From Bdellovibrionota bacterium (GTDB taxonomy: Bacteria; Bdellovibrionota_G; JALEGL01; DATDPG01): 64,000 bases of DNA. The notes beneath the pieces are model-generated. The model had not been told where the DNA came from. It did not search any database and saw only the letters and a list, made by a program, of their open reading frames with translations. The DNA lies in contig OY764265.1 of NCBI GenBank assembly GCA_963668355.1, forward strand, positions 1,153,317 to 1,217,316, read 5' to 3'. Shown here piece after piece: positions 3,231 to 62,534 of the stretch. Each line of letters starts with the position of its first letter. Within the stretch, counting starts at the first letter, position 1. Position numbers and translations under genes: made by a program.

Positions 3231-5681
<2,451 letters not shown>

Positions 5682-5691
5682 GAGGGGCGAA

Positions 5692-8160: not shown

Positions 8161-8230
8161 AAAGCGCGACACCCGTCGCGCAAGAGGACTCCGAAATCGT
8201 TGTTAAGAACAGCTACGTTTAAGGGAAGCA

Positions 8231-8541: not shown

Positions 8542-8600
8542 CCGACAGGGAAAGGGGCTCCGAGCACTGTCGGGGCGCAGCGAGCCCCTTTCCCTGTCGG
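8542..8600. repeat. Perfect 19-bp stem hairpin (CCGACAGGGAAAGGGGCTC ... GAGCCCCTTTCCCTGTCGG) with 21-nt loop
   Basis: Exact reverse-complement arms at 8542-8560 and 8582-8600; no downstream T-tract. Confidence 0.8.
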
Positions 8601-8756
8601 TCAGGACCCTCCCACAAAATCTCCTCGGCTCACTTTATGCCCAGAACGAAACTCATGCGCGACGAATGTCGCGCATTTACGGATGTCGCGCTTTTTGAGT
8701 TTGGTTTTGAAGGAAGGGCCTTGCTTACATTTCGGATCTGGGGCAGCATCGGGGGC

Positions 8757-29488: not shown

Positions 29489-29518
29489 AAAGAGCATAAA
29501 TATTAGGTTGTTGTAAAA

Positions 29519-32500: not shown

Positions 32501-33415
32501 ATCGCGAGTGGAATCGCCAAGGCCGATGACGTGGCCGAGGAGTTCGCTCGAAAAAAATGGAAACTCAATATTGATGAAAGTTTTGTTTCTACATTTATTG
32601 GAGACAGCGTCATTCTCGGATTGATCACCGGATTTGTGGGTGATCGCCTGTATCGTATGGGAGAAGTAACGTGGCAAAACCGAAGCGATGGGTATGGGGC
32701 GGCACTAAGTGAAGGTGCGGATGCTTTGCTCGTTAATCCCTTCAATTTGGGGGATGCTCACGAGGGGGAAGAGACGAGAATCAACCTTGTTACGGGCATG
32801 GTGCGTCGTGCGTACACCACGTTTTTCATGACTTCGGCCTTAAGTTTTCGAAAGAAAATGATGTGGGTCAACCTGGGTGGCGCCGCAGTTGAAGGCCTCA
32901 CCACCGCCGCGACCAACCTCTACGGTCTTACACATGGCGATGACGCCCTTGACTTCGAGGATGCCCTGGCAACATTGGTTTCACCCGAATGTCTCATCGC
33001 CATCGCCAAGCGCTTAAACCTTGGGTACATCTACAACAACTTCTACGCCCTGTGGCATAAGCAAGCCTATTGGAAAGTCCGACACGCCATGCGCAGTCCC
33101 ATGATGAATCGTTCGATGTACGACGTGTTTGTACTTCGTCTGGGCTGGTCAACCGTCTTAGGCAAGGCAGGATTCACCGGTGCAACTCATTTGTTTGATG
33201 CGCCAGGGGAATGCGCTCCGGTGGACCACCCGTTTGAAGAACTTTCGGTCAAGGGTAACGACCCTCGCATGAGCTTTGCGTTCCAACAAACCGCAGACGA
33301 ATTGGATGCTTTGACGATCAACGATTGGATGGATTTGCAAGAAGAACTCGAAGCCGAAGGCGTAGAAATTGATGAAACATTGGGCATGGAAGAGTTTGAG
33401 GGAGACGTCGAATGA
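29519..33415 (+). CDS. Large exported hypothetical protein (1298 aa)
   Basis: N-terminal hydrophobic signal/anchor (IILFFVVVLGLPCLAVA, likely start near 29591); Gly/Ala-rich hydrophobic segments near C-terminus; acidic tail; no known catalytic motif found. Confidence 0.6.
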   Translation: MKRVVKERLAFMTQCGKPRSNQGTMLRVRFKKIILFFVVVLGLPCLAVASQAPKSIPDEGRLTKEISIERFNGATKVVIAPDLLRKWDGKLTEDSKLVLAEVLIYRKRTVQILLEALDRLRFLALALGETAYQDPSLAMPDDLAMVLDRAFDPRQFGDLMGGVGWLRNPLAQGAEFDPVVMDAFWRDILERSIGVVHRESQKAFYERYRGVDEVIDESVSLEENLGEYCRRTRDEIDQSKAVSQSIEARNQEARTLLYDIDGNAYEGERLLFTPLHYGKTFLPNEIYREKVRPILRDINTLRQYPGKGRDDGYLANFFVALALNELSEKHGFDIRLATESQPRSSLICAAWDEIPFDQLDDEFFVRNSEHFRTAFLAAIQEAIRLHQHVLVYLLDLHAPSRFGGVVSFAQSVTRTISRVFKNDYLPYPDNPLDIIQKLSVLAAIFQGAPDLMEEVRAENPMDKVSWENLQNCLREEFEQYQVRLEGDERLKAFNSIGYVGMAATMVTRSWIPTIIMVVNDAFITFTITRPRMHYRQNLTKLYQSMFLNVDPQWVLANEAKIKLDVHDHADKLRDLVVLDAQASQEFRNACGWMLGFGTFWAFRGIKWFNGMWRWVQGAVSPEKYIVSSGSNMFELRKEVMRTVKAIYQLFDEKMLVDGKGRRIEVIGAFRKQGWWKEVWERAYSFIPNDLTIIQREFPQVYRRLAREFRKLHLHIENPEDITKFLAHHEKGEGFSLWSLAQELKLASRADIEDWARRMDSSDVEDFIQHAGQRVEGRVRFNQLHKLRIRREGFRIKIEAPRMPAPPLQPASTAQQARNSQNVLATLNERYQVARRQLAADLKGLKVYAEAEDDVVGRAGEYHFKKKEIQHVHNIQKTLRDLEHLLDPVTRHRDRSAPGVERTAKLLLAIGRPFEKPVHASQEFVFQAVRTMSAWIGVYLDLSLAMRMKRMIPPGALSQVMRNAIAQKVERVPGLRPFADAVRKGKDWITVGKDGIASGIAKADDVAEEFARKKWKLNIDESFVSTFIGDSVILGLITGFVGDRLYRMGEVTWQNRSDGYGAALSEGADALLVNPFNLGDAHEGEETRINLVTGMVRRAYTTFFMTSALSFRKKMMWVNLGGAAVEGLTTAATNLYGLTHGDDALDFEDALATLVSPECLIAIAKRLNLGYIYNNFYALWHKQAYWKVRHAMRSPMMNRSMYDVFVLRLGWSTVLGKAGFTGATHLFDAPGECAPVDHPFEELSVKGNDPRMSFAFQQTADELDALTINDWMDLQEELEAEGVEIDETLGMEEFEGDVE

Positions 33416-35925
33416 AATATCTTAAACTCACCTTGATCGTGGTTTCCGTTCTTATTGGATGTACCTATGTCCAGAGTGTTGATGCACGCCCTCGTGCAAA
33501 TCGTCAAACGGAAGCCGAAAAAGTCGGAGGTCTTTATCCCCTTACCCCCGAACTTCGTAGCCAGATCTCCACACTCATTGGCATGGCTAGATTTGGTTTG
33601 GGATATAAAAACACAGCCATTCATACTTCGGTCACGAACCCTGCCACGAATCCGTCCTACTACAATGATCTTCTTTATGGCGCCGTACACGCAGGAAGCG
33701 CTGTGCGCGTGCCCAACCGCATCAAAGAGCCCACGCTCTATCATATCAACCATCTCCGACAGGATCTGGGTGCCGAGTATGAGTTGCTGTATTGGAGCGA
33801 AGAAGCGCGCAAGCTTGGCTTCATCACCTCCGTGCGAATGTTAAAGGAATCAGAGGAATATCTTTGGGCGTCGAAGGCCGATCAGCAAGCCATGGAACTG
33901 AACTTAGCCAATCAATATGCCGTTTCTACGGTTCCCAGAGTCACTGAAGCTTTGGAAGAGGTGCGGAAGACAGCTCGCTACGCGGAAGCGGTTGAACGCG
34001 ACGATAAAGGCAGAATCGCTCAATTGGAACTTTGGACGCGTATCAATGCTCTGTATGCGATTTTGCAAGAAACCCGAGCCTATCAAAAAGCACCCAGCTG
34101 GAAGCAGAAAGCCATGGAAGAATTGATTCTGGCCAAAGAGCGCCAAGGTCTCATGAGTGCTTTCCTTCACTTTCGCATTCCCATGTTTCAAATTCCGGTG
34201 GACGGTCTTTCCTCGAATGAAATCGAGGAACTTCTCTTGGAAATGAATCAGGCTTTTCCAGAACACCACCCCTATGTGTTTGAGGTGAAGGATGGTGTGT
34301 TTCAAGGTTGGTTAGATTTAACCGAGCTTTTGCTCATGCGTTCGATGCTGTATCGCACGCGTCTTCCTTGGGAAGACAACACGCTCTCGGAAACATCCGA
34401 TCTCCCGGTGCTGGACCAAATCGCTTTGGGATCGACCCTCACGCACCAAGCGGTCCACATGACCGCGCCCATTCTACAGAATTGGGCGCAAGGTGTGGTC
34501 GCAACGACAACGGCAGCGGACCTTGCGGCATACGAAGGAGCGAGCAGCGCCATTCAATTTTTGGGAGATCGCTATCGTGAAATGCCTCTGCGAGCGCGCA
34601 CTGGAATGTTGGCGCGGACCCTGGTTCCCCGCTTGCCAATATTGAAAGGGCTCTATCTGGAGAATGCGGAGTGGGCCAAGATTGCGGCGGCCATATTTAC
34701 TCGCGCGCAGAAAGAAAGCACGAAAGCCGCGGCGGGGTTTGTTACCACCAAACTCAAGGCCCTGGGAGGCGTAGCCTTACGAAATTCAGCCCTTTTTGGT
34801 CTGGCACTGGTAATTGCGATAGATGCCTATCAGGTCTACCGCGCCGGCCAAGACGCTGGCTCGCCTCAAATGCAAGCCGAGGCGTTTGGAAACTTAGCCG
34901 TTCATTTGGCTGAAGGATTTGGGGCAAGCATGCTCATCAAGGCTTTAGCGGGCGCGGAAATGGTTCAAGTTACGGCAGGTATGGGTTTGGCCCAAGCAAC
35001 GGGTGCGATGCTCACGGCCGCCCTCACCAATCCCGTAACCTGGATCATTGTTCTGGGAATTGTCGCGACGGAAGTGATTCAGCGAAACTGGTATCCGGAC
35101 ATGATTACAATTGGCGTGGTTCGTCAATATGGACAGGCCTTTTTTGCCGATATGTGGAGAACCGTAGCGGACGACTTAATTCGCAGCAAAATCTGCGGAC
35201 GAAACCTTGTGATGGAGCAGTGGCAAAAGAAAGTATGTCTTAAGAAAGAGGAAGGCGGAGATTGGGAGCCTCGCACGTTTTCCTTTTTGGATTATCGCGT
35301 TCCACCTCAGGCCTTCATGGAAATGAACCCAGAGCAGCAGCGAGAAAACCGACGGCTGTATGTCTTGGACTTGGACCATTTTGAGGGATCCGTGGAAGAA
35401 ATCCTTACCTATCCTCCCATTGATCGAGCGGAAGCCTTAGACACTTTAGTAAAGGGCTATGCCGTGGCCTATTTAGAGCGGATGTTTTTCACGCTTCAAT
35501 TCCTAGGAGATGTCAACGTGAACCACTTTAAAGGACTCTTCGAAGAGATTGGTTTGTTGGCTTCGTCTGCTTCAATCGTTCCGGTCGATTTTGAGACGCA
35601 TGTGGCCAAATACGAGACGAAGGACCGCCTAGAAGTAAGAAGCGCGCTGCAGACCGAGCTGGAAGAGTTTGTGGGGCGCGCCGAGGGGCTCGAAAAAGAG
35701 TACGGTCGAAACCTTGTCTTCGGGTCGATTTCCGATGATATGATGCGGCGTTTGACTGGCTTGACGGATGAAGCAATTCTTGTTTTAGAGAACTGCTTTG
35801 ACCTCGAAGGCGAAGATGGGGAAATGCGTGCACGAAAACCTTGTATTCCCACGCCAATTGAGGAAAAAGCCTTGGAAGCTTTGTACGAACAAAGAGATCA
35901 AACAGAGCGGCACTGGTTGAAATAA
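33412..35925 (+). CDS. Large hypothetical lipoprotein (837 aa) with central Gly/Ala-rich hydrophobic helices
   Basis: Lipobox-like LIGC signal; ATGA overlap with upstream gene; central segments (GFGASMLIKALAGA, AGMGLAQATGAMLTAALT) resemble glycine-zipper membrane helices. Confidence 0.6.
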   Translation: MKYLKLTLIVVSVLIGCTYVQSVDARPRANRQTEAEKVGGLYPLTPELRSQISTLIGMARFGLGYKNTAIHTSVTNPATNPSYYNDLLYGAVHAGSAVRVPNRIKEPTLYHINHLRQDLGAEYELLYWSEEARKLGFITSVRMLKESEEYLWASKADQQAMELNLANQYAVSTVPRVTEALEEVRKTARYAEAVERDDKGRIAQLELWTRINALYAILQETRAYQKAPSWKQKAMEELILAKERQGLMSAFLHFRIPMFQIPVDGLSSNEIEELLLEMNQAFPEHHPYVFEVKDGVFQGWLDLTELLLMRSMLYRTRLPWEDNTLSETSDLPVLDQIALGSTLTHQAVHMTAPILQNWAQGVVATTTAADLAAYEGASSAIQFLGDRYREMPLRARTGMLARTLVPRLPILKGLYLENAEWAKIAAAIFTRAQKESTKAAAGFVTTKLKALGGVALRNSALFGLALVIAIDAYQVYRAGQDAGSPQMQAEAFGNLAVHLAEGFGASMLIKALAGAEMVQVTAGMGLAQATGAMLTAALTNPVTWIIVLGIVATEVIQRNWYPDMITIGVVRQYGQAFFADMWRTVADDLIRSKICGRNLVMEQWQKKVCLKKEEGGDWEPRTFSFLDYRVPPQAFMEMNPEQQRENRRLYVLDLDHFEGSVEEILTYPPIDRAEALDTLVKGYAVAYLERMFFTLQFLGDVNVNHFKGLFEEIGLLASSASIVPVDFETHVAKYETKDRLEVRSALQTELEEFVGRAEGLEKEYGRNLVFGSISDDMMRRLTGLTDEAILVLENCFDLEGEDGEMRARKPCIPTPIEEKALEALYEQRDQTERHWLK

Positions 35926-40287: not shown

Positions 40288-43200
40288 TTGGCGGGGAAGT
40301 TTCGTATGAAGACCAGAGATCTGTTGACCAAGGTGTTGTTTTCTTTCCTTTTTGGGCTTTTGGCTTTTTCAGGACAAAGCTTTGCCCAACCGGTATGGCC
40401 ACATTATTTTCAAAATCTTCACCCGAAGGTTTCCTCCACCGAAACCCAATATCTTCTGAGAGAGTTTGCCGATGAATGTGCGGCCCTGGACGTTCTCGGC
40501 TCTCAGCGCTACATCAGTTGGCAAAATCGCGGGACCTCAAGAAAAGATCGAGCGTTGGAGGAAGAATTCGATCAAGCTTTTGAAGAGCTCAAACAATTGA
40601 GTTTTGACATCGTTGATCGCCTGGAGCCCTCCGAACTTTTTCTTTTGCTTCAACAATTTCCGTCTCTGGCCTCGCGCTTGGGAATTCCACAATACGCACA
40701 CAATTTGGTTTCGATGGTCAGCATCGGGAGACCCAAGTTCGGAATTGGCGAACTGGAAAAATTCGTTCGCCATCGCACGCTCGTGCGCTTTCTGGAATTT
40801 TCGGAGGAGGAAGATCCCGAATTTGTCGCGTGGCTCTTAGAGATGTTGATCAAGGCGGAGGCCCATTGGGAGTTGTATGGGAATCTTCTAGCGCGAATGG
40901 ATGCTCTTGAAAGTCAGCGGCAGTACTTGGGCTATACGAACGATGAAAAAATAGACGAATTGAGAAGACACACCGAGTTTTATCAAAAGGCAAAGCCTCA
41001 ATTGGCTAGAGAAATTTTGGAATTGAAAAGGGCGACCGATCATCCCCGTTATGAAGCGTGGTTGAATTTGGCGCAAACCTATTTAGATGAATCTCCGGAC
41101 CTTCCGCAAAACATCGGTGAAGGTTTTGGTCTCCCTTTCTATTATGGTTTTCGTTCGGGCTTAGACAGTCTGGCCAGCGTCTTCCATCGTTTTGTTCTGA
41201 AAGATCCAAAGAAAGCCAGTGAAGCGACACATAATGCCGTCAAGTGGCACGAGCGCGCGTTTGCCAGCTCTCATTATTCTGGACTTCGTATGGACCGGCT
41301 TTTAAAGGGCGCAACCTTCCGTCCCGAAAACAGCCCCACTTTAGTTGGCGCAGGGGCCTCTGAAACTTTTTTGGGCGTTTTTGCTTGGCTGGGAACCGCA
41401 AGCGGTCACATCATGGAAGGGGATATCGGACAAGGGGCCAAGGTTCTTTTCATTGATTTTGCCGATGGGCTGTTTTCGTTGGCGGCGGCGCGCGACGACT
41501 TTGTCGAAGACTGGGCCGAGGTCGCTCAAATGCGATTGCAGGCGCAACTCATTGAGGATGAAACGATTCGTCAAGAAAAGATCATTCAAGCCGGCCAAAT
41601 GGCCTTGGCCAATCGACAAAACGGATATTTCAATCCCCATTATTCCGCGCCTTATGCCATCGGTGCGGTGATGGGAGCCAAAAAGGCATTTCGTTTGATG
41701 GTGGTTCCAATTCGATATCTTCGCTCTTTAAATCCTCGGATTCAGGAAGCCCAAGCCCGAGCAGGGCTGGAAACTTCTTCACGAGGAGGTCAGGGTTTTG
41801 AATGGAAACCCTTAGACGAACAGTCTCGAATACAAGTAGAAAGCCTCATTGAAAGTCTCCGAAAATCTGAAAATGCGGAATTGCAGGCCTTGATCCAAAA
41901 TGTGGAAAAAGGCGAACCTCCAGCCGGTCTATTTCCGGATGAAGGCGGAAGCGCAGCTCCTTCTCTTTCGCCACGCCGAGGAAGTGGCGGAGGTGGACCC
42001 GCAACGCTCGTCGAGTCTCGTCCCACGACGGGCTCACAAACTTCCACATCAACCTCTGTGGGTCAAAGCGCACGCACCCTTCAGCCATCACAGCCCTCTC
42101 CCTCCCAAGGGCCGGTCGCCCAGATTCAAACTCCGACGCAAATCGCTCAAGGTCTCGTCGTCGGAAATGTTGAACTCTTACATGCGAATGAAAATGAAGG
42201 TGAGGAAACCAGCGGGGAGGAAAGCTCATCGGAATTCATTGAACGTTTAACGCGCGAAGTTCGTGAATTACAGAAGCGATTGTTCGATTTCATTCCAGCT
42301 CTGGCTGAAACATTCGGCAGCTTTGAAAACTGGGTTCTGAAAGGCATGCCCCTACCTAGAGAAAGCGAGTTGCATGTTCGAGAAATTCGTCGCTCGATTC
42401 AATTGCCACCTCCTTCTCCCGAGACTATTCCCGATCAACTCATCTTCAACTCGCCAGAATATTTTCGTTGGCTTTTTACAGCCGTCGAAGCCTTAGACAA
42501 AGCCGAGCAAGAAGCTCTAACCGACGCGCTTCAAGGGCTAAACCTCATGACGGAGAGGGGCGGAGATGTCGCGTCCGACGCCACGCGCTTAAGTCAAATT
42601 TTTCAGGGTGTTTCAACCCTCAACTTAAGCGACTTTGATGGAACTCGTTCGCGCCTAGAAGATTTGGGAGAAGCGCGCAATACAGAAGTCGATCAACGCG
42701 CGGAAGAACTCCATGAACTGGAAGCCAACTTGGGCCTACATACGGTAAAAGTTTCGGGAAGACCGCTGGTTTGGCCGGAAATAGGATTGCTTGGTAGTTC
42801 TCAGGCCTCTCCACCACTCGCCATTGGAGAAGCCGGAGCGGCCATGGCTATTGATGGTGTGCCCTCGGAAGAATATCAAGGCTTCATTGATCAGCGTTCA
42901 GGTTTCAATCGTAGTGAACTCGATTTACAAATTCGCATTTTACTCTCGGCCATGGTGTTGCACGGCGAGTTTTTGGAAGCCTGGCGGCCTCAAGCTCAAA
43001 ACGGAGTGACACACAAAATTGCCTATGACGTTAAGCTCAAAGATGACAGCGACGGCGAAACGATTTTAAAACTTCAATTATGGCTTCAGGAAGTCGTAGG
43101 TGAGCGTGCCAAAGTTGTGCAAAGCCATTTCATTGAAGCTGAAAATGTAGGCCATAAAAATGTTTATCGCATTGACATCGTTCCGGGGGATAAAGCCGAC

Positions 43201-52583: not shown

Positions 52584-53087
52584 CTATTGAGAGCGGGTTG
52601 AAAAGGTAATCGTGCGGCAGGGAGCCGTGTTTTTCGAAGAGGCTCTCGTTAGAATGCGGCCCGAAAGACTTCCATCTTCATTGAGGCGAATCCATAAATC
52701 CTGGCAGACGGTTGAGCCCTTGTTGATGTGGCAAGGGATTTGTTGCCATTGGTTTGGTGTTAGTGTGGTTTCCAGAACGCTTGGTTCCAGGAGGGCCTCT
52801 CCAAGGAGTTTTCCGCCGTTGTCATGGGTGCGAACTGTCAGGTGAAGGCCATTATCCAGATCAGCAAGGATAAACTCCAGCAAACCCTCGTGGTGCACAA
52901 CCTGTCCCCCCGCTTTCCAATCGTCTCCTGGGGCGTATAGCTGCGTGGTTTCGCACCTTCCTGCGATGCCGTGTTGCATGCCCTCAAGGCTAAGGAGGGC
53001 TTCTTCGATGGTTAGATCTTCAGCAATAGCGAGCCTTGGGATTAAAAGTCCTATGCTTACCACCACACCCAGAAAGAATTTGTTCAT
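52584..53087 (-). CDS. Small exported hypothetical protein
   Basis: 167 aa with signal peptide FLGVVVSIGLLIPRLAIA; upstream of the SSF transporter on the same strand. Confidence 0.45.
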   Translation of the reverse strand: MNKFFLGVVVSIGLLIPRLAIAEDLTIEEALLSLEGMQHGIAGRCETTQLYAPGDDWKAGGQVVHHEGLLEFILADLDNGLHLTVRTHDNGGKLLGEALLEPSVLETTLTPNQWQQIPCHINKGSTVCQDLWIRLNEDGSLSGRILTRASSKNTAPCRTITFSTRSQ

Positions 53088-53375
53088 TGCCCTGTCCTTT
53101 AAAAATTAATGCTTCGCGTCAGGCTGGACTTTATACCTCATCTGGAGCCTCGAAAGAAAGGTTCAAGGGGAGATTTTTTGAAAAAAATTTTGGGCCACCG
53201 TGTAGAAATTTCGAAAAATTCGTAAACTTTAGTTGTCGTTTAAGATATTAAAATAAAAAGATAAATTTGGTTATTGCTTTAAAAACGTGTTTTTTGTTAC
53301 ACTAAAGCTGCACCCCCGAAGGTTGCTCCAGGAGGCGGGACCCAGATTTTCTGGGTTTGGAGTGTCATCGGGTTT

Positions 53376-53412
53376 GGGGTGGGCTCCCTCCCGGGCCCAC
53401 CCCCTTTTTTTT
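53376..53412 (+). terminator. Strong Rho-independent terminator on the plus strand with no plus-strand CDS upstream
   Basis: GC stem GGGGTGGGC(TC) / (GG)GCCCACCCC with short loop followed by T8 (53405-53412). Confidence 0.55.
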
Positions 53413-53613
53413 GCTCACAGCAAAAAACTTGGGAACGGCTAATTCGCCGCATATCTTCGTTAGAGCCCTTCGCTCGGTCCTCACGTACCGCGCAAGTACG
53501 CTGCGGTCGTTTTTCGTTTTCCGCCTTGATCTGCACCAAAATAGCTCGTTTCGTAGTTGTTCAAAGAAGACGCGTGAGCGTTTCTCCCGGGTTTTTCCTC
53601 CGAAAAAAGTTTT

Positions 53614-55050
53614 CTAAAAACGTAAGCTTGTTGTCAAAAAGATTTCGTGGAGTTGGATTTTTGCGTCTAGGTCGTTGGTTTCGGTTTCTTGGCGAAACGC
53701 ATACTGAAGGGCGCAAGAGAGGTTTCGGATCGGGTAGTAAAACGCATGGGCTCGGAGCGACCACTCTTTCTCCGTGGTTCGAGGTGCGGATGTAGGAGAA
53801 AGGTCTTGCCAGGCGTCACGCTCATTGCCTTCGAGGGTTCCTCCCATCTCCAGGCGAAACTCCCCATCTCGGAAATTTCTTCCCATCAAAAGATCTATGC
53901 CCGTGTTGAATCCACGATAATTGTCGATGAGGTCCGCTTGAATTCGTAGATCAAAATCGGAATCAAAGAGTTGGGGGTCACGATAGCCTACGGTGTATTT
54001 GATTTGGTTTTGGTCATCAAAGGTGCGTTTCATGTATTGGATGGCGCCAAAGACATAATTGCGATCAAAAATCCGAAACATGATCTGATCTCGAACACCA
54101 TAGTAGTACGCGTCAGTGACTTGAGCCCCTCCCAATAACGTGGAGTTAAAGAGGGGATCGCTGGAAGGAAGAATGGTCGAGAGATTTGAGGCATCAAACT
54201 GAAGAACGCGCCACAAGTTGAGGGAAAGCGTGTTGGTGAAGCTGGGTTGAGGTCGGGTAATCACCGATAATTGACCCAGTCGAAAGGCTGCGACTCCAGC
54301 AACATCTGCTTCCACCAAGCCAGAAAGACTCCATCGCGCATTGAAGTCGTAGGTACCTTGAGCAAATGCGGTCATGCGATCCAAACTCTTCTTGAACCAT
54401 TGGGCGTGAAGCGCGACATCTCCTCGAAAAGCGTTTCCTCGATACGAAGCATACACACCTGAAGTGAGGTAATCCAAAGAGAAGGGCTCACTCCGATACG
54501 CGCTTCCCAAGTAGCCAACTTGATTTCTCAAGTCATTGGCGAATCCGCCGAATAAACCAAGGCTCACACGATTGGAAGAGTGATAGACCAAACGAAGGCC
54601 ATCTACGCGAGCCCCTCCGGCTTCATACATGCGTTGGCGTCCCACCCATAAATCCAGTGATTTTGCGATGGAGGGAAGCTCCAAGCTGGCTTCGTAAAGT
54701 TGGTGCCGCCCCGCATTCGAAAATGAAAAGGTGGAATTTTTTTCTCCAATATTGAAATAGCTTCGTCCTTTGAAATGAAAAGTGCCGTCCTGTGAAGCAT
54801 TTTCACCAAAGAGTTTGGAAATTTTGGTTCGAAGGCCCAGCGAGAAAAGGCTGTACTGATCTTGAATATAATTGTTTCCGTAAAGATCGTCGGCCTGGAA
54901 GTTGGCTTGGCTCGAGACATTGTTTCGTAGATGCCAAAAACCCATATCCACATTGCCTTTGAATTCGGCCGCGTGAAGAGGAGCATGCGCGGCAAAAAGG
55001 AGCGCCCCTCCCAACAGGCCCAGAGCTCGAAGGGTTCCCCGTTTCTTCAT
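53614..55050 (-). CDS. Outer-membrane beta-barrel protein (porin-like), third gene of cytochrome operon
   Basis: Signal peptide LRALGLLGGALLFAAHAPLHA; alternating amphipathic beta-strand pattern; C-terminal ...TSLRF aromatic terminus; ATGA start/stop overlap with the cytochrome gene. Confidence 0.7.
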   Translation of the reverse strand: MKKRGTLRALGLLGGALLFAAHAPLHAAEFKGNVDMGFWHLRNNVSSQANFQADDLYGNNYIQDQYSLFSLGLRTKISKLFGENASQDGTFHFKGRSYFNIGEKNSTFSFSNAGRHQLYEASLELPSIAKSLDLWVGRQRMYEAGGARVDGLRLVYHSSNRVSLGLFGGFANDLRNQVGYLGSAYRSEPFSLDYLTSGVYASYRGNAFRGDVALHAQWFKKSLDRMTAFAQGTYDFNARWSLSGLVEADVAGVAAFRLGQLSVITRPQPSFTNTLSLNLWRVLQFDASNLSTILPSSDPLFNSTLLGGAQVTDAYYYGVRDQIMFRIFDRNYVFGAIQYMKRTFDDQNQIKYTVGYRDPQLFDSDFDLRIQADLIDNYRGFNTGIDLLMGRNFRDGEFRLEMGGTLEGNERDAWQDLSPTSAPRTTEKEWSLRAHAFYYPIRNLSCALQYAFRQETETNDLDAKIQLHEIFLTTSLRF

Positions 55051-57128
55051 GGTTTTGCCGGCCTCCATCCAAATGTGAAGTGGCAGGTTTCACAGGTGAT
55101 GGGTGCGCCCACATGACCGGTGATCGTGGCATCGAAGTCCTTGGCATGACAGAAGTGACAATCTTGCGGTAAGCCGCCAAAAATTCGATTGGCATGACAT
55201 TGGTTGCAATCCAAGAAGCGGTGGGCTCCCGAGAGGTCAAAGCCCGTTTGGGAGTGTCGGAAGGTGGTGGGGAGCCAAGCTTGTTGGTTGTGACATTGCC
55301 AACACGTTCGCCCAAAGGAATTCATATGGGGGTCGAGATGGCAAGCCGCGCAGTCCGTTCGGGAGGTGCGAACGTTTTCCGTGGCATTGTGGCAGGCCGT
55401 GCAATCCATTTGATCATGAACTCCACCCAACGAAAATTCGCCAAAATCATGAAAGCCTCCTTTTCGAACGGAGAAGCCTTCAAAGACATGACAACGCTCA
55501 CAATTGGTTCCAAACGTTCCATCATGAACATCCCGGTGACAAGACGAGCATTCGCTGGATTCAAACTTGTATTGATAATCTTTATGGCATTGATTGCAGG
55601 CCAGCTTTCGATGTTGTCCTCTTAAGTTAAACCTGGAACCTCGCTCATGATCGAATTCGATGTCGTTGAAGGCAATGGGCGCATGGCATCGCATGCATTC
55701 AATTCCAAGTTCTCCCTTGTGGAAGTCCGTGTGGCAATTTTGGCAAAGGGTGTCGATGCCGGCATAGCGGCCATTCGAGTGACAATCCGCACAGGGTACG
55801 TTTTGGTGTTTTCCAACCAACGGAAAACGGGATTGCCGATTGTGGTCGAAGGTCAGGTTTTTAAATGCAGAGAACGTATGACAGGATGCACAGGTTTTCT
55901 TTCCAAATTGTCCTTTATGTACATCGATGTGACAGTAGGAGCAGTCCGGATTTTGATTAAGCCAGCGATACTTGGCGTCTGCATGACATTGGCCACAGGG
56001 AACGACCTTATGTTTTCCTTCGAGTTTGAACCGCGCATCTTTTTCATGGTTGAACTTCAAGAACTTCCAGCCGTCTTCAATATGGCAGCTCTTGCAAGTT
56101 TTCTTTTCGGTCCAGAGAATTTCGAATTGATTTCCATGGGGGTTATTGTGACAGCCGCTGCATTGAGAAAAGTTTTTCATTTTTCCAATGACAGGGCCGT
56201 GACACCTCACGCACGTCACATAGTTATGTTCGCCTCGTAAAGGAAAGGCAGTTTTACTGTGGTCAAACTCACCCTTTCCTTTAGGGGTGATCGCTCGCCA
56301 AGAACGCGTGTGATGACATTTCTTGCAATCTTTTCCCAGCTTTCCCTTGTGGGGATCTACGTGGCAATTGCTACATCGTTTGAACGGGGTGGGTTTCCAG
56401 AGTTTGTTTTTGTGACACGCGTAACAATCGACCGGTTTATGTTTCCCGGTGAGAGGATATTTCGTGTCTCTATCGTGATCAAACGGGAGCCGGGCTAAAA
56501 TGGGGGACCATTTCGAAGTGTTGTGACATTTTTCACATAAGGTGAACGATTGGGTTTTGGACTTATGAATGTCCTCGTGACAAGACGCACATTTAGAGGG
56601 GGTGTTGATGTAAGTTCGTGTGTTGGTTTTACGGCCGGTTTTTACATGGCGGCGTTTGGCTTTGTGGCAGTCCTCACATTGCGCAGTGACGTGTGCACCA
56701 TCCAACGGCCAGTCGGTTTCGTCGTGATGAAAGGAAAGGCGCGTTAAACCCATCAAATCATAATCCAAGCCTTTGTGATCACTGTGGCATTCGATGCAGG
56801 TTCCTTCAACACGCGCATGGTATCCCTTGTCCTTGGAAACCAGAGAGGCGATTTCGGTATGGCAGTCGAGGCATTTTTGGTCAGGGACACCTTTTGCGGT
56901 GGCGTGGCAATCGGTACACTTGCTCAAGCCTTCCAGCTCTTGGTGGGCTTTGGCCAAAGGACCGGGATTTAGAAGCCCTCCGAAGTCAAGCTGGGCCCTT
57001 GCCGGTGACGCTGTCGCCAGAAATCCAAAAATGGCCGCAATGATTATGTGTCCCCGAAATCTCAAAAACATCCCCAAGTGAACTAAAACGATACCCGGAA
57101 TCGTCCAATTGGCGAAATTTTCAATCAC
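55047..57128 (-). CDS. Multiheme cytochrome c with 27 CxxCH motifs (about nine triheme c7-like repeats)
   Basis: 27 CxxCH motifs counted in the translation; signal peptide MFLRFRGHIIIAAIFGFLATASPARA (alternative start near 57071); recurrent FDH / GxH distal-His spacing. Confidence 0.9.
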   Translation of the reverse strand: MIENFANWTIPGIVLVHLGMFLRFRGHIIIAAIFGFLATASPARAQLDFGGLLNPGPLAKAHQELEGLSKCTDCHATAKGVPDQKCLDCHTEIASLVSKDKGYHARVEGTCIECHSDHKGLDYDLMGLTRLSFHHDETDWPLDGAHVTAQCEDCHKAKRRHVKTGRKTNTRTYINTPSKCASCHEDIHKSKTQSFTLCEKCHNTSKWSPILARLPFDHDRDTKYPLTGKHKPVDCYACHKNKLWKPTPFKRCSNCHVDPHKGKLGKDCKKCHHTRSWRAITPKGKGEFDHSKTAFPLRGEHNYVTCVRCHGPVIGKMKNFSQCSGCHNNPHGNQFEILWTEKKTCKSCHIEDGWKFLKFNHEKDARFKLEGKHKVVPCGQCHADAKYRWLNQNPDCSYCHIDVHKGQFGKKTCASCHTFSAFKNLTFDHNRQSRFPLVGKHQNVPCADCHSNGRYAGIDTLCQNCHTDFHKGELGIECMRCHAPIAFNDIEFDHERGSRFNLRGQHRKLACNQCHKDYQYKFESSECSSCHRDVHDGTFGTNCERCHVFEGFSVRKGGFHDFGEFSLGGVHDQMDCTACHNATENVRTSRTDCAACHLDPHMNSFGRTCWQCHNQQAWLPTTFRHSQTGFDLSGAHRFLDCNQCHANRIFGGLPQDCHFCHAKDFDATITGHVGAPITCETCHFTFGWRPAKP

Positions 57129-57156
57129 AAAAGAAGAAAAGAAATCTTTAGTGAAA

Positions 57157-59127
57157 TCACCAGTTTGTGAAAAGAATGAGGTTCTTCAAAATGTGACCGA
57201 CGGCGATCATCATCATGATCCAAGCGAAGGGTCGATGAACCGTTCGCCAAAGGGCAAAAAGTCTGGACGTTACATTTAATAGAGCCGCGTTTCGTTGCAG
57301 GCGGATTTGGCTTTTCAGCAAATCCAGGAAGACGTGAACTTGGCGACCTTGAATTTTGATTTCTGAAGGAAGGCGAAGTCGGTAGGTCCACAGCATGACC
57401 CATGTACGGATGACCGAACGAATCAAAGACCAAAAGGTTGGATTCAGGCGCGCATCTTCGGTGGCCGTTTGAACAATCTTTTTCACAAAAGCCTTTTGCG
57501 CATCGGACTGACCCAAAAGGGCGCCTAATTTTTGCGTCAGAGCTTCATCTTCTTCTTCAATGTCCCGCATGCGCAGTTCAGTCCCTGCAACCCCACGCGG
57601 TATGATTTGATAGAGGAACCGTCCGAACAGTCCACTTAAAACCACCAGTCCCAAGGCCACGATCCCGAAAGAACTGGGCTGGAAGGGAAAGACAAAAGCC
57701 GTGTGAAAGAGGATCAAAACCGATCCAAAAAATCCGCAGAAATTGTGAAAATCCAACCAGGCGGGTTCTCGGCCCAAATACTTAAAGAGGCGTGGAAACT
57801 GTTTCCGCAAGGGGTAGGCTAAGCTTCCCATGATCAGAAGAAAGCCCAAGTTTCCATAGAAGTTACAAAGTTTGGAGCCTCGAGAAAATTCCAAAACCGC
57901 ATCTGAGGGGAGCCAGCCCCAGGCCTTCATGAGAAGAAGCAACGAGACGTCCGGGGATTTGGTGAGGGCAAAGGCTTCCCACGCCAGAAAGAGCGTTCCC
58001 ACAAAGGCTAAGAAAACATATGTTTTTTGCAGAGCCAAATCGAACCAATTCCTCTGCAAAAGACTGTCCATGGGTTTCTGAACGCCTTTCCCGGCTCCCA
58101 GAATTCGGGGATCTTCCAGAAGTTCCGAAGCTTCTACCTCCAGAATCGCACCCGTGGGGCAATTGGCGACGCAGGCAAGATCATCAAACCCATCACAGTG
58201 ATTGCATTTGTCCGCGATGAACTTGGGTTTGACCTTTTTATGGGGATCGAGGAAACGAGAAAACACAGGAAGTGTGGGCTCAACCTTGTGCATGAGGATG
58301 GCTCCATACTGACAAGCCGTGGCACAGGCCGAGCAGCCGATGCAATTGTCCAAAATTTCCACCTCACCCGTTTGTCGGTTGAACACCACAGAATCCACAG
58401 GGCAAGAGGGGATGCACGCGGGGTAGAAGCAAGTCAGGCAGCTTTTGGCAAAGTCCAGAACGCCAAACCGGGCATACCCCCGTTCAATTCGTTGAAACCC
58501 GTGCCGTTCTTCACAGGAGGTGTAGCAAATATTGCATTCGATGCATTTGTCCATTTGGGTGATTTTCACGCGAGAGCCTTGCGTGAGTTCGGTTTGGATC
58601 AAGAATTCAAGCGCGGACCGAGAATGTTTATCCTCACTGAACGTCCGGTTTCGATAGTCGACGCGATCGGCAAGTTTTTTTAAGTCATCCTTAAAGCCGG
58701 GTTGAATCTCGGCCAAGCGCTGAAGGTCTTGTCGGGAAACGACCAAGAGTTCTACCGCCGTGATGGCAGTGGCCTTCGTGGCCACTTGTCCCCGCCAGGA
58801 GAACGCCTTATCTACAAAAAAATCGCCTTTTCGGAGAAAATTGAGCGGTTTTTGACGTGCCTCCTCGTCAAATCCTGAGATTTGCAGTTGTCCTTGCAGA
58901 AGGAAAAAGAAGTATGAGAAAACAGCCTCTCGTTTGGGAAGTTCCAGAACGGTCTCTCGGGCGGGATAGCTGCATCGATACACGCGGCCATCCAGGTGGC
59001 GCAATGAAGCCCCTGGGACTTTGCGAAACAAGCGCAAGCGTTTCAAGTCCTCTGAGGTGGCCAGAGGAAAAGAAAGGGGCTTGGATGCCTGTTGCGAAGT
59101 TGGTTTTAAGGGCATACGTTTTCCCAT
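57157..59127 (-). CDS. Membrane-bound iron-sulfur protein: cNMP-binding-like N-terminus, two 2x[4Fe-4S] ferredoxin domains, C-terminal polytopic membrane domain
   Basis: Cys clusters CIECNICYTSC, CLTCFYPACIPSCP, CIGCSACATAC, CNHCDGFDDLACVANCP; N-terminal Crp-like beta-roll pattern; four to five hydrophobic helices at C-terminus. Confidence 0.8.
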   Translation of the reverse strand: MGKRMPLKPTSQQASKPLSFPLATSEDLKRLRLFRKVPGASLRHLDGRVYRCSYPARETVLELPKREAVFSYFFFLLQGQLQISGFDEEARQKPLNFLRKGDFFVDKAFSWRGQVATKATAITAVELLVVSRQDLQRLAEIQPGFKDDLKKLADRVDYRNRTFSEDKHSRSALEFLIQTELTQGSRVKITQMDKCIECNICYTSCEERHGFQRIERGYARFGVLDFAKSCLTCFYPACIPSCPVDSVVFNRQTGEVEILDNCIGCSACATACQYGAILMHKVEPTLPVFSRFLDPHKKVKPKFIADKCNHCDGFDDLACVANCPTGAILEVEASELLEDPRILGAGKGVQKPMDSLLQRNWFDLALQKTYVFLAFVGTLFLAWEAFALTKSPDVSLLLLMKAWGWLPSDAVLEFSRGSKLCNFYGNLGFLLIMGSLAYPLRKQFPRLFKYLGREPAWLDFHNFCGFFGSVLILFHTAFVFPFQPSSFGIVALGLVVLSGLFGRFLYQIIPRGVAGTELRMRDIEEEDEALTQKLGALLGQSDAQKAFVKKIVQTATEDARLNPTFWSLIRSVIRTWVMLWTYRLRLPSEIKIQGRQVHVFLDLLKSQIRLQRNAALLNVTSRLFALWRTVHRPFAWIMMMIAVGHILKNLILFTNW

Positions 59128-59243
59128 TATAGGGAATGCTTGAGAAACTTGACAGAGGATTGATCCGATTTCATCTTTGATTTCAGCATGATTGGCGATG
59201 AGCCAAAAAGGAATGGAACGAAAGGGTTAAAGCAGGTGAGAAA

Positions 59244-59966
59244 ATGATCGAAGTAAATCAGCTAACCAAAAAGTATGGAGAAATTCATGCCGTAGATGGC
59301 GTCTCGTTCAAAGTTGATGACGGAGAAATTCTTGGTTTTTTAGGACCAAACGGAGCTGGCAAGACCACCACCATGCGCATTTTAACGGGGTTCATTCCTC
59401 CCTCATCGGGAACGGCGGTTGTGGCGGGCCACGACATCCAAGTCGAACCCCTGGAGGTCAAAAAACGAATCGGCTATTTGCCGGAAACCCCTCCGCTTTA
59501 CACCGACTTAAGCGTGTCGGCCTATTTGAATTTTGTGGCCAAAATCAAACAGATTCCTTCCGAAAAGAGAGCTGAGCGCTTGGACTGGGTATTGGAACAA
59601 TGTGGGTTGAAAGATGTGCACAAGCGCGTCATCCAAAATCTTTCGAAAGGATATCGCCAGCGCGTGGGTTTGGCACAAGCCATCATTCATGAACCAGAGG
59701 TCTTGATTTTGGATGAGCCGACGGTCGGGTTGGATCCGGCTCAAATCCGGGAAATTCGAGAGCTGATCAGAAAGTTGTCGGAAAACCACACCATTATTTT
59801 ATCCACACATATTCTTCCAGAAGTGACGCTGATCTGTAATCGGGCTGTGATCATCAATCGCGGAAAAATTGTGTTGGAAGGCACCGTATCTGAGCTTACG
59901 GCGGAGAAAAATTTGGAAGAGGTTTTCGTCGACCTGGTTTCAAAAGGCGAAACAACCGAAGCTTAG
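59244..59966 (+). CDS. ABC transporter ATP-binding protein (ABC-2 / GldA-like)
   Basis: Walker A GPNGAGKTT, signature LSKGYRQRVGLA, Walker B ILDEPT. Confidence 0.9.
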   Translation: MIEVNQLTKKYGEIHAVDGVSFKVDDGEILGFLGPNGAGKTTTMRILTGFIPPSSGTAVVAGHDIQVEPLEVKKRIGYLPETPPLYTDLSVSAYLNFVAKIKQIPSEKRAERLDWVLEQCGLKDVHKRVIQNLSKGYRQRVGLAQAIIHEPEVLILDEPTVGLDPAQIREIRELIRKLSENHTIILSTHILPEVTLICNRAVIINRGKIVLEGTVSELTAEKNLEEVFVDLVSKGETTEA

Positions 59967-59983
59967 GCTAGAAGGAGAAGGAC

Positions 59984-60769
59984 ATGTCAACGACTTGGGC
60001 CATCATTCAGAAAGAAATTAAACATTATTTCGTATCTCCCATCGCCTACGTGGTGATGATGATTTATCTCACGCTGTCGGGGTATTTCTTTTTCGTGGGG
60101 CTGAATCGATTCAGTCATGTGTATAGCGAGGCCAAAAATTCCATGCGGTTTTATCAAAATCCGCAGATCCTGGAACACATCAACCTGAATGAGATTGTGA
60201 TTGCACCGGCCTTGTTCAATATGATTTTTGTGTTTCTCTTCCTGTTGCCCTTGATCATGATGCGATCCTTTGCCGAAGAGAAAAGGGCTCGTACAGATGA
60301 ACTTTTAATGACATCCCCCATCACGACGGGACAACTCGTCATGGGTAAATTCATCGGCTCCATACTTTTCATTCTGGTTTTGATTCTGCCCACGCTGATC
60401 TATCAAGGATTTCTTTTTTATTATGCTTCCCCCGAGTGGGGGCCCGTGTTTACGGGGTATGTCGGCGTAATTTTATTTGCGATGGCAGGTGTTTCCATCG
60501 GTCTGTTTGCCTCCTCGTTGACTGAAAATCAAATCATCGCAGCGGTCATTACCTTCGTGATTTTGCTATTCATGTTCATCATCAATTTTATTGGGCAAGC
60601 CGAGGGGACCTTTTTGTACGACATTGTTCGGTACCTTGCAGTAGCCGAGCATATTCAAAACTTACTCATGGGTGTGATCGACACAAAAGATCTAGCGTAT
60701 TTTTTAAGCATCATTCTTTTGTTTTTGTTCATGACCAAACGATCTGTGGAATCGTTCCGTTGGAGATAG
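59984..60769 (+). CDS. ABC-2 family permease (GldF-like)
   Basis: 261-aa six-TM protein directly downstream of the ATPase. Confidence 0.8.
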   Translation: MSTTWAIIQKEIKHYFVSPIAYVVMMIYLTLSGYFFFVGLNRFSHVYSEAKNSMRFYQNPQILEHINLNEIVIAPALFNMIFVFLFLLPLIMMRSFAEEKRARTDELLMTSPITTGQLVMGKFIGSILFILVLILPTLIYQGFLFYYASPEWGPVFTGYVGVILFAMAGVSIGLFASSLTENQIIAAVITFVILLFMFIINFIGQAEGTFLYDIVRYLAVAEHIQNLLMGVIDTKDLAYFLSIILLFLFMTKRSVESFRWR

Positions 60770-60776
60770 GAGGACG

Positions 60777-62534
60777 ATGATGAACGTATTATTTCAATGT
60801 TTGGGAATTACTGGATTAATCATGCTGCTCTATGGCCTTTTGGCCTTTGCAGTGACTCCCGTTGCTTCCGTTTTCTTTTGGGTTTTGGTGATTTTGGGAA
60901 CGCTCTTGATCTTAACCTTTGTCATCAAGTCTTTGTCTCGGCGTTGGCAGTTGGTCACGGCGTCCTTTGTGGGCCTAAATGGCATTTGGATTTTTCTTTC
61001 TTTTGGAGAGAAGTTGGGCTTCTGGGATGAGTTAGACTGGCGCTATCTTTTAATTGGGGCGTTTGTTCTCAATGTCATTTTTGTGGTTGCGGCCAGAAAG
61101 TTTTTGAAAGACCTGTTTGAAAAACGAGCCGTTCAACATGGTGCCAATGCCATTGTGTATTCCTTGATCTTTTTGGCCACTCTGGTGGTTTTAAATATTT
61201 TTGCCGTCGACGTGAATCGCAAATGGGATTTTACCGAAAGCTCCATCAATACGCTGAGCCAGCAATCTGTTGACCTTCTCAATCGTCTGGATGCTCCTTT
61301 GAACATCTATGTATTCGTAGATGATCAATATCCGGACAAACCACGCCTGAAAAAATTGCTCGGAATGTATGAATTTGAATCCGATAAAGTGAACGTTGAG
61401 TTTTTGGACCCGGATCGAGAACGTCATCTGGCCGAAAAATACAAGGTGCAGAATGGCCAACTCGTTGTGGAGTATAAAAATCAGTCGCACATCACCCAAG
61501 GAACCAACGAAGAAGGGATTACGCAGGCCATTTTGAAAGTGGCTGACAAAAGAGATGCGACGATCTGCTTCGTTCAGGGTCACGGAGAGTTGGGCATCGA
61601 TAGCGAAAATGATGATCCACGAAGCCTCTCCGCCGTCAACGGAGGTCTTGAAAACGAGGGATATACCACCAAAGTCGTCAACAATATTACGGGGGGTATT
61701 CCTCAAGATTGTTCGATTCTGACGATTGCCGGCCCCACCCAAATGTATACGCCGGATGAAGTGAAGTCGGTGGAGAACTTTTTGGCCGGGGGAGGAAAGG
61801 CCATGATCCTTTTGGATCCAAACATCCCCAATCCAAAATTGAATCCAAAAACCTTCCATATTTTGCCGACGGGATTGGAACAAACGCTCAAGAAATGGGG
61901 CGTGTTGGTTGGGCAAAACTTCATTCTGGAAAAACATTTGGAGCTTTTGCGTGGAATGACGGTGGGTCTGACCGTTATGGCACGGAACTATGGAAATCAC
62001 CCCATTGTCGATCCTTTAAAAGGACGACAAACGGTGTTCCAAAATGTTCAATCCATCCAAAAGAACAAAGATTTTTCCGGAACCGCGCTTGAAATCATTT
62101 CAAGTGCAAAGGGAGATTTGAGCTGGGCGGAACAAAACATTGACCGTCTTTTAAAAGAAGGCGCGGCAGAACCGAATGCTGGAGAGCTGAAAGGGCCTGT
62201 GCCGTTTGCTGTTGCGGTTGAAAAGGATATGAAAGGGAAAGATGAATTGGATGAAAGGCAAACGCGCATTCTCGTCATCGGCGATGCGGATTTCGCCTCC
62301 AATGGAATGGTGACCTCTTATGAGTTCAATTTTGACCTTTTCTTAAATGGTTACAATTGGCTTTCCGGACAGAAAGAAAGCATCACCATTCGTCCAAAGC
62401 GTCTTCGGGCTTCAGCCATCGAACTAACTCCGGAACAATCTCTTCGGATTTTTCACATTGCGATTGTTGGCATCCCCATGCTGGTTCTCATCTTTGGCAT
62501 GAACCTTTGGTGGTGGCGCAGACGAAAGGGGTAG
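60777..62534 (+). CDS. GldG-like ABC-transport auxiliary protein
   Basis: 585 aa with N- and C-terminal membrane anchors and large extracytoplasmic domain; gene order ATPase-permease-GldG. Confidence 0.7.
   Translation: MMNVLFQCLGITGLIMLLYGLLAFAVTPVASVFFWVLVILGTLLILTFVIKSLSRRWQLVTASFVGLNGIWIFLSFGEKLGFWDELDWRYLLIGAFVLNVIFVVAARKFLKDLFEKRAVQHGANAIVYSLIFLATLVVLNIFAVDVNRKWDFTESSINTLSQQSVDLLNRLDAPLNIYVFVDDQYPDKPRLKKLLGMYEFESDKVNVEFLDPDRERHLAEKYKVQNGQLVVEYKNQSHITQGTNEEGITQAILKVADKRDATICFVQGHGELGIDSENDDPRSLSAVNGGLENEGYTTKVVNNITGGIPQDCSILTIAGPTQMYTPDEVKSVENFLAGGGKAMILLDPNIPNPKLNPKTFHILPTGLEQTLKKWGVLVGQNFILEKHLELLRGMTVGLTVMARNYGNHPIVDPLKGRQTVFQNVQSIQKNKDFSGTALEIISSAKGDLSWAEQNIDRLLKEGAAEPNAGELKGPVPFAVAVEKDMKGKDELDERQTRILVIGDADFASNGMVTSYEFNFDLFLNGYNWLSGQKESITIRPKRLRASAIELTPEQSLRIFHIAIVGIPMLVLIFGMNLWWWRRRKG

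Follow-up and report, generated by a model that had tools for sequence, protein, structure and literature searches.

A conserved fusion of a CRP-like domain, a four-cluster ferredoxin and a probable di-haem membrane domain heads a minimal multihaem cytochrome cluster in Bdellovibrionota

A three-gene unit headed by a fusion protein

We analysed a 64,000-nucleotide stretch of a Bdellovibrionota genome (GenBank assembly GCA_963668355.1, contig OY764265.1, positions 1,153,317 to 1,217,316; hereafter the window), focusing on a gene at 57157..59127 on the minus strand. This gene, gene A, encodes a 656-aa protein in which a cyclic nucleotide monophosphate (cNMP)-binding-like domain is followed by four [4Fe-4S] motifs and a C-terminal membrane domain of five helices. 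Together with a downstream gene for a 27-haem c-type cytochrome (gene B) and a gene for a putative outer-membrane beta-barrel (gene C), it forms a functional unit of three genes, A-B-C. The gene A protein is best described as a fusion of the PtdE and PtdF proteins, or of the iron-sulphur (Fe-S) protein and the inner-membrane protein (IMP) of PCC4 clusters, heading a minimal cluster. We favour, with moderate confidence, the reading that it carries electrons across the inner membrane by a route that can do without quinones.

The initial annotation of the window, made from the sequence alone, had described the first gene of a cytochrome operon with this domain content and order. The open reading frame (ORF) was found exactly at the above coordinates in the ORF list, Pfam returned cNMP_binding and Fer4 families, and the next ORF on the same strand carries 27 CXXCH motifs. 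The fusion in a single ORF is neither a chance event nor a frameshift or assembly artefact, since the single-ORF form is retained in ~40 homologs spanning several phyla. The word 'unusual' in the initial annotation was therefore too strong: this is a conserved family of Bdellovibrionota-type, Myxococcota and other lineages, the parts of which have already been published as adjacent genes.

The membrane domain is probably a di-haem cytochrome b

The membrane domain (57160..58047, minus strand; residues 361-656) comprises five transmembrane (TM) helices and a cytoplasmic insert. Two AlphaFold2 (AF2) models and hydropathy placed the helices at residues 361-390 (TM1), 419-443 (TM2), 454-475 (TM3), 484-508 (TM4) and 617-652 (TM5), and between TM4 and TM5 lies a cytoplasmic insert of ~100 aa with four helices (residues 509-616) that opens with a conserved PRxxxGxEL motif. 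The model of the domain alone, which contained the five TM helices and the insert, had a mean predicted local distance difference test score (pLDDT) of 87.9 and a predicted template modelling score of 0.78. TM3 carries W457x3H461x13H475, TM5 carries W627x3H631x13H645 and TM4 carries S498GxxG502 (S498-G499-L-F-G502). The four histidines H461, H475, H631 and H645, forming two HX13H pairs, were invariant in an alignment of 22 gene A homologs. The loop charges fit an N-in, C-out topology according to the positive-inside rule, which would put H461 and H631 towards the cytoplasmic side of the membrane and H475 and H645 towards the periplasmic side.

Residues 345-656 alone were then searched against 1.84 billion cluster representatives, yielding 1558 matches at E≤1e-3, of which 468 also passed E≤1e-10. 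Nearly all of the matches were stand-alone proteins of 270-320 aa without a Pfam domain. When the gene A domain was aligned with 49 relatives that are 21-30% identical to it (50 sequences in total), invariance was confined to G425, G428, H461, H475, G499, G502, W627, H631 and H645, with W457 conserved in ≥90% of the sequences. Apart from the TM2 glycines G425 and G428, these are the signature residues of the IMPs of the PCC3 and PCC4 clusters, defined as WX3HX13H on both TM3 and TM5 together with SGXXG on TM4 in a protein of five TM helices. Drawing on the ferric-reductase domain and cytochrome b as parallels, He et al. took this signature to mean two b haems with bis-His ligation (Front Microbiol 2017, 8:1584, PMC5566968). 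The Pfam matches of the domain were weak and below cutoff (DUF4405, Ferric_reduct and Ni_hydr_CYTB); that to Ferric_reduct (PF01794) scored 15.1 bits against a cutoff of 28 (E 0.025) and covered residues 425-480 only. Taken from these sequence features, the domain is probably a di-haem cytochrome b with two bis-His b haems. The 'polytopic membrane domain' of the initial annotation thus stands, with five TM helices, while its probable di-haem nature, marked by the four invariant histidines, had gone unrecognised.

In one metagenomic representative (P0143, 663 aa), an IMP-type domain bearing SGxxG and the WX3HX13H motif of TM3 is fused at its C-terminus to a c7-type region with nine CXXCH motifs, so that the membrane domain is joined to a periplasmic and not a cytoplasmic partner; this sequence looks partly frameshifted.

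The cytoplasmic part combines a four-cluster ferredoxin with a remodelled CRP-like domain

The ferredoxin domain (58108..58572, minus strand; residues 186-340) contains four cysteine motifs, C195xxCxxCxxxC, C230xxCx4CxxxC, C262xxCxxCxxxC and C308xxCx7CxxxC, all 16 cysteines of which were invariant in the 22 aligned homologs, in line with the four complete [4Fe-4S] motifs first noted in this protein. A dozen Fer4 families of Pfam matched residues 190-330, and the closest solved relative was the four-cluster ferredoxin HycB3 (7qv7_A, E 3e-10, residues 186-336). The NCBIfam models HydN, DmsB, ArrB and QrcC gave partial matches, all under cutoff, and the AF2 model was poor over this region (pLDDT < 50). 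By its motifs, the region is a four-cluster ferredoxin of the HycB/HydN/DmsB type, predicted to hold a [4Fe-4S] cluster at each motif.

The N-terminal domain (58633..59055, minus strand; residues ~25-165) is a beta-roll with a C-helix of the CRP type. The Pfam family cNMP_binding (PF00027) matched residues 68-140 with 38.8 bits against a gathering cutoff of 27.5 (E 9e-10), so that the Crp-like domain of the initial annotation was upheld by the profile search. AF2 modelled residues 21-160 as a beta-roll plus C-helix with pLDDT of 78-91. The best 50 Foldseek matches of this domain were CRP, Clr, GlxR, Vfr, PKA-R and MlotiK1 cyclic-nucleotide-binding domains with E values of ~1e-7 to 3e-6, led by Clr, CRP and GlxR at ~1e-7. 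HTH_Crp_2 and the Crp family were not matched in the gene A product, and the beta-roll runs directly into the Fe-S domain.

The site at which CRP holds its nucleotide has been remodelled. In the HMMER alignment, G71-E72 of CRP correspond to V105-D106 and R82-S83 to A116-T117, and the R82 position is occupied by A, S, V or T, with Arg in none of the 22 family sequences. The GDFFVDK stretch highlighted in the initial annotation is real (residues 101-107) and lies within the phosphate-binding-cassette region of the beta-roll, where the canonical cassette is replaced by the conserved motif LNFLRKG[DE]FFVDK..W..QV[AST]TK. True cNMP sensing was rejected because the cassette Arg and Gly are missing, and the sequence does not support the proposed gating by a cyclic nucleotide. 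The same stretch is nevertheless the most conserved section of the CRP-like domain (conservation of 0.80 compared with 0.65 for the whole domain and 0.81 for the Fe-S domain) and recurs in the divergent homologs P0057 and P0183, which leaves room for another ligand or for the docking of a partner; in the model favoured here, the pocket would probably serve to bind a different small molecule or to dock the redox partner.

A profile search with the N-terminal half of the gene A protein also returned soluble 590-aa proteins (P0223 and its relatives P0224-P0230, with P0224 labelled Actinomycetota), which have an N-terminal Fer4 domain, two cNMP-like domains and a C-terminal four-cluster ferredoxin. 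The cNMP-like domains of this type appear, by eye only, to be without the canonical Arg-Ser/Thr-Ala. The P0223 gene (7001-8773 of locus L021) sits between a gene for a Pyr_redox_2 protein with three FHA domains and one for an 876-aa cytochrome, amid Ccm maturation genes. The cNMP-like/polyferredoxin module recurrently accompanies multihaem cytochromes.

The fusion is conserved together with the cytochrome and barrel genes

Full-length homologs of gene A with 47-59% identity, ~40 in number and none of them bearing a functional name, were found in metagenome-assembled genomes (MAGs) labelled Bdellovibrionota, Bdellovibrionales or Oligoflexia, with a few labelled 'Pseudomonadota' or 'Deltaproteobacteria'. 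A full-length form with about 27-28% identity was found in Myxococcota and Bradymonadia, and the further divergent proteins P0043, P0044, P0057 and P0183 had the same architecture.

We examined synteny in 14 genome loci, 11 of which reach the gene after A and 10 of which reach further. A 23-30-haem cytochrome homologous to gene B was found downstream of gene A in all 11 (the copy in L006 is cut by the contig end), which bears out the tie between this family and cytochromes drawn in the initial annotation, and a gene C homolog was present in all 10 loci extending past gene B. In the divergent P0183 lineage, the next genes encode a 26-haem cytochrome and then a 511-aa protein with a C-terminal ...WRF. 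The A-B junction tolerates insertions, as four loci carry 1.2-2.1 kb of extra genes there (L001 10012-11492, L003 10547-11254, L005 10072-11361 and L012 5560-7592). These are mostly small secreted ORFs, plus one 417-aa ORF in L012; none has a CXXCH motif and none is conserved between loci.

A frameshift or assembly artefact was rejected as the origin of the fusion. Among the loci, only L010 (MAG ABC1.34) has a gene A homolog split into three successive ORFs of 166, 267 and 237 aa (7947-9927), either a pseudogene or the product of assembly frameshifts, and the cytochrome of this locus has 24 CXXCH motifs.

Gene B (55047..57128, minus strand; 693 aa) has its 27 CXXCH motifs arranged as nine triplets, that is, nine tri-haem c7-type repeats with a period of ~65-84 aa, and matched Pfam Cytochrome_C7 over 8 stretches (E 9e-31). 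Its N-terminus is a signal or anchor sequence and its start is probably Met20 at 57071. The protein is 31-33% identical to the first cytochrome of two IMP clusters, L016 and L019 (31% over 97% of its length for L016). Searches of the PDB gave no significant match to any solved structure, GSU1996 included, and the match to Mtrc-MtrF_II-IV was sub-threshold (16 bits against 30).

Gene C (53614..55068, minus strand) encodes a 484-aa protein with a signal peptide and a C-terminal ...SLRF, and its start is probably Met7 at 55050. This likely start overlaps the gene B stop codon as ATGA, with GGAGG 10 nt upstream, indicating translational coupling. The terminal Phe was invariant in 11 homologs, the beta-amphipathicity was high compared with shuffled sequences (z=3.3) and TM helices were absent. 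Since the protein had no Pfam or PDB match, even with a profile, we infer from these features that it is an outer-membrane barrel. The gene further downstream (gene D, 52584..53087) was rejected as a member of the unit; it lies beyond a 526-bp gap and no homolog was found downstream in any locus.

Stand-alone relatives point to a candidate electron donor

For the stand-alone relatives of the membrane domain, five neighbourhoods had usable flanks (L016, L017, L018, L033 and L034). In L016, L017 and L018, the IMP gene was followed by two or three multihaem cytochromes and then by a porin-sized protein of 530-570 aa without a Pfam match, and in L033 one cytochrome was found before the contig end. 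In four of the five (L016, L018, L033 and L034), a gene for a 437-485-aa flavoprotein with Fer4 and Pyr_redox_2 domains was found beside the IMP gene or in its operon. Such neighbours indicate that the IMP family is recurrently partnered with cytoplasmic Fe-S redox proteins, and the Fer4+Pyr_redox_2 protein is a candidate cytoplasmic donor for the whole family.

These four flavoproteins bear an N-terminal hydrophobic helix, and in L033 a pyruvate:ferredoxin oxidoreductase cluster was found just upstream. Within the window, no flavoprotein donor was detected by tblastn with three Fer4/Pyr_redox proteins from related clusters or by Pfam scans of the 23 largest ORFs checked. A metagenome scan with the N-terminal profile yielded no usable loci with a split, PtdE-like arrangement, only short or truncated contigs.

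Relation to known systems

The nearest published counterparts are the PCC3 and PCC4 clusters and the ptd operon. The gene A membrane domain has the same five TM helices and the same TM3/TM5 and TM4 motifs as the PCC3/PCC4 IMPs, a likeness drawn from the published signature and not from named IMP sequences, and both systems contain a haem-rich periplasmic cytochrome (21-27 haems in PCC3 and 27 here) and a porin, which is a putative one here. In PCC4 subgroup II, an Fe-S (pfam13247) gene lies immediately upstream of the IMP gene, and in Oceanospirillum beijerinckii the two are even annotated as one gene (PMC5566968). The present system differs in that the Fe-S protein and the IMP, separate genes in PCC4 subgroup II, form one conserved polypeptide with an added CRP-like domain; whereas the PCC3/PCC4 IMP is a stand-alone protein of ~300 aa, its counterpart here is the C-terminal 300 aa of a 656-aa fusion. 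The cluster is also minimal, with three genes, and lacks the extracellular cytochrome of PCC3 as well as the 4-, 5- and 10-haem set and other redox genes of PCC4. The hosts are Bdellovibrionota-type and Myxococcota MAGs, in contrast to the Proteobacterial Fe(II) oxidisers that carry PCC3 and PCC4.

The ptdABCDEFG operon (2024 preprint, bioRxiv 10.1101/2023.11.21.568154) is a putative porin-cytochrome cluster with a porin and 5-, 4- and 10-haem cytochromes, the function of which its authors called 'completely unknown', and in which PtdE (a cNMP domain with 4Fe-4S) adjoins PtdF (transmembrane, ferric-reductase-like). The gene A protein has the same two modules, fused, the equivalence being one of description and not of sequence. 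PtdE was described with two 4Fe-4S clusters, compared with four complete motifs in gene A, and the ptd operon combines penta-, tetra- and deca-haem cytochromes with the FAD/NAD(P) oxidoreductase PtdC, compared with a single 27-haem cytochrome and no flavoprotein found in the window.

More distant likenesses concern single parts. Compared with ferric-reductase-domain proteins (NOX, FRE, MsrQ/YedZ; PF01794) and other di-haem b bundles (CybB, cytochrome b561, FdnI and HyaC), the gene A domain has five helices in place of six and carries a ~100-aa helical insert between TM4 and TM5. The cytoplasmic module of the ferric-reductase type is an FAD/NADPH domain and its acceptor O2, an Fe(III) chelate or MsrP, in place of the 4x[4Fe-4S] wire and the multihaem cytochrome of the gene A system. 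NarHI, DmsBC and FdnHI share the Cys-motif pattern and couple a four-cluster ferredoxin to a membrane anchor, with haem b in NarI and FdnI, but gene A has no molybdopterin or other catalytic subunit, its Fe-S part is fused to an anchor of a different family and its periplasmic partner is a cytochrome c wire. NapH, NosR, MauN and CcoG are likewise membrane proteins with cytoplasmic [4Fe-4S] motifs in periplasmic redox systems, but they have the TM-then-Fer4 order, two clusters and no haem-ligand His pairs, whereas gene A has the Fer4-then-TM order and four clusters. The initial annotation had rightly kept the protein apart from NapH, MauN and NosR, no matches to which were found in Pfam or NCBIfam; membership of the NapH, NosR, RnfB or MauN families was rejected on these profile searches.

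Like the c7-repeat cytochromes of Geobacter, such as the 12-haem GSU1996, gene B encodes a polymer of tri-haem c7-type domains, and by haem count alone it equals GSU2210, which we take to have 27 haems. Unlike those cytochromes, it is translationally coupled to a barrel gene. This adjacency of a periplasmic multihaem cytochrome gene and a putative outer-membrane barrel gene is also that of Mtr/Pcc-type complexes, although homology to MtrA/MtrB or OmaB/OmbB was not detected for B, beyond the sub-threshold Mtrc-MtrF_II-IV match, or for C in Pfam or the PDB.

Gene A is not categorically new, since published work had already predicted both its parts and the association between them. Our literature searches found neither the fused form nor such clusters in Bdellovibrionota. 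Novel aspects are the conservation of the four-cluster fusion as a single polypeptide, a minimal layout of only three genes and the host range, together with the non-canonical yet conserved CRP-like pocket and the recurrence of an Fe-S flavoprotein gene beside stand-alone IMPs.

Models of electron transfer

The reading of the gene A protein as a conduit across the inner membrane builds on the domain content, the invariant ligand residues, the charge-consistent topology, the three-gene synteny and the relationship by homology to IMP-family proteins encoded in cytochrome/porin clusters. Its predictions concern the occupancy of the cofactors, the path and direction of the electrons, the donor and the role of the beta-roll. 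The N-terminal 360 residues are expected to be cytoplasmic, because they have no signal or Tat peptide and because Fe-S clusters are assembled in the cytoplasm. In this part, the CRP-like beta-roll would precede a wire of four [4Fe-4S] clusters. Two b haems would be stacked across the membrane, one ligated by H461 and H631 on the cytoplasmic side and the other by H475 and H645 on the periplasmic side. Electrons would pass from a cytoplasmic reductant through the Fe-S wire, the inner haem b and the outer haem b to the 27-haem cytochrome, which would have the length to span the periplasm and reach into the gene C barrel, giving a complete path from the cytoplasm to the cell surface without a need for the quinone pool. 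The donor would most likely be an Fe-S flavoprotein that depends on NAD(P)H or ferredoxin and is encoded away from this unit, similar to that beside the stand-alone homologs. The flow would most likely be outward, disposing of reducing equivalents to an extracellular acceptor, as favoured on general thermodynamic grounds by the low-potential clusters and by the aid that the membrane potential gives to this transfer. The 'electron-input module' of the initial annotation agrees with this in that feeding or relaying electrons fits all of the findings.

A quinone-coupled module is a rival reading that we rate as fairly unlikely. With the function of CymA or CbcL and an architecture like that of NarI, FdnI, HyaC or CybB, the di-haem b domain would act in quinol oxidation or quinone reduction, the Fe-S wire would feed or draw on menaquinone and quinol would pass electrons to the 27-haem cytochrome on the periplasmic side, so that the route would lead by way of the quinone pool and not directly across. 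However, no quinone-site motif was identified in the gene A protein, all of the NCBIfam matches were far under their cutoffs, and the four-cluster wire in line with two haems, together with the flavoprotein neighbour of the stand-alone IMPs, makes up a complete path free of quinones. The same chain could also run inward, from an extracellular donor (Fe(II), Mn(II), reduced humics or another cell) through C, B, the b haems and the Fe-S wire to a cytoplasmic acceptor. The PCC3 and PCC4 clusters were indeed discovered in neutrophilic Fe(II) oxidisers (PMC5566968), the PCC3 IMP gene was up-regulated once Sideroxydans CL21 had gained iron oxidation, and porin-cytochrome conduits are known to be reversible. 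We nevertheless consider inward uptake improbable, given that electrons entering from the positive outside towards the negative cytoplasmic side would have to move against the membrane potential and that the hosts, Bdellovibrionota-type and Myxococcota MAGs, are not known lithotrophs. Moreover, typical [4Fe-4S] ferredoxin clusters are far lower in potential than c7-type haems or the Fe(II)/Fe(III) couple.

The CRP-like domain raises another alternative, a membrane-bound redox or ligand sensor in which the beta-roll and the Fe-S clusters would sense a metabolite or the redox state of the cytoplasm and allosterically regulate the cytochrome system. CRP/FNR-type effector domains are typical of sensors and the CRP-like pocket region is strongly conserved. 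Pfam, however, found no output domain (helix-turn-helix, kinase, GGDEF or similar) in the gene A product, and a DmsB/HycB-type four-cluster wire with two stacked haems is a layout for electron transfer. The membrane domain is also far commoner without the beta-roll, so the core function does not need it, and we regard a pure sensor as very improbable. Returning to the conduit, a speculative and unlikely extension is that Bdellovibrionota and Myxococcota, as non-lithotrophic and possibly predatory bacteria, use the fusion as a self-contained 'electron export valve' independent of quinones. The remodelled yet highly conserved CRP-like pocket would then bind either a redox partner or a metabolite other than a cNMP, and so gate the flow from the Fe-S wire through the two b haems to the periplasm-spanning 27-haem wire. 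If true, a ligand would control an electron conduit through the whole envelope, a kind of regulation that has not been demonstrated in any system for extracellular electron transfer.

In PCC3, PCC4 and Ptd-type systems, the crossing of the inner membrane by electrons has so far been a matter of prediction, and PCC3 was still 'functionally unverified' in 2025. The fusion of the Fe-S wire and the putative di-haem domain in a minimal unit argues for the IMP family as a genuine conduit through the membrane, partnered by a cytoplasmic Fe-S protein. The fused form makes gene A a compact target for expression, spectroscopy and cryo-electron microscopy and extends such conduits to Bdellovibrionota-type bacteria and Myxococcota, neither of which is known to respire metals. 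It also directs attention to the ligand or docking partner of the non-canonical CRP-like domain.

Expression signals and other features of the window

A database protein (P0001, 652 aa) with 100% identity to the gene A product begins at Met5, and the true start of gene A may be this codon, at 59115. The consensus scan returned a promoter-like site CTGTCA-18-TATAAT (10/12) at 59126..59155 on the minus strand, inside the 116-bp divergent intergenic region. The TATAAT -10 hexamer overlaps the first ATG of gene A (59127), with the second ATG (Met5) 12 nt further on. This candidate is weak, as the promoter and terminator scan was not above shuffled sequences (3 promoter-like sites compared with 5.2 in shuffles). 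No obvious Shine-Dalgarno sequence was seen at either ATG. The mRNA may be leaderless or near-leaderless and begin at Met5, in agreement with the 652-aa database entry.

On the other side of the unit, the 526-bp gap after gene C (53088..53613) contains a strong GC-rich hairpin at 53376..53403 with 11 pairs, 9 of them G-C, flanked in the plus-strand view by an A-run and, at its opposite end, a T-run, which could be a bidirectional terminator downstream of gene C. Rfam detected no RNA element in 52000-60000.

Upstream of gene A, 59244..62534 on the plus strand encodes, in divergent orientation, an ABC ATPase, an ABC-2 permease and a GldG-like ABC_transp_aux/DUF7088 protein. These ABC-2/GldG-like genes adjoin gene A in all 10 Bdellovibrionota-type loci, with 62-74% identity for the first two genes, and are absent from the Myxococcota loci.

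Elsewhere in the window, a 2083-aa ORF (40288..46539, plus strand), the only Pfam matches of which were GT4 glycosyltransferase domains near residues 1240-1590, lies beside a convergent 703-aa fusion of GT4 and a uridine-kinase-like (PRK) domain (46536..48647, minus strand). Four large ORFs of 366, 1298, 837 and 674 aa (28388..35925 and 48877..50901, plus strand) were without a Pfam match at E≤1e-4. The gene at 13915..15579 on the minus strand joins a Ser/Thr protein kinase to a PilZ (c-di-GMP-binding) domain at the C-terminus, which is an uncommon pairing. The window probably adjoins the chromosomal replication origin, since gyrB and gyrA (3231..8160, plus strand) were found near its start, after two ORFs of dnaN/recF size.

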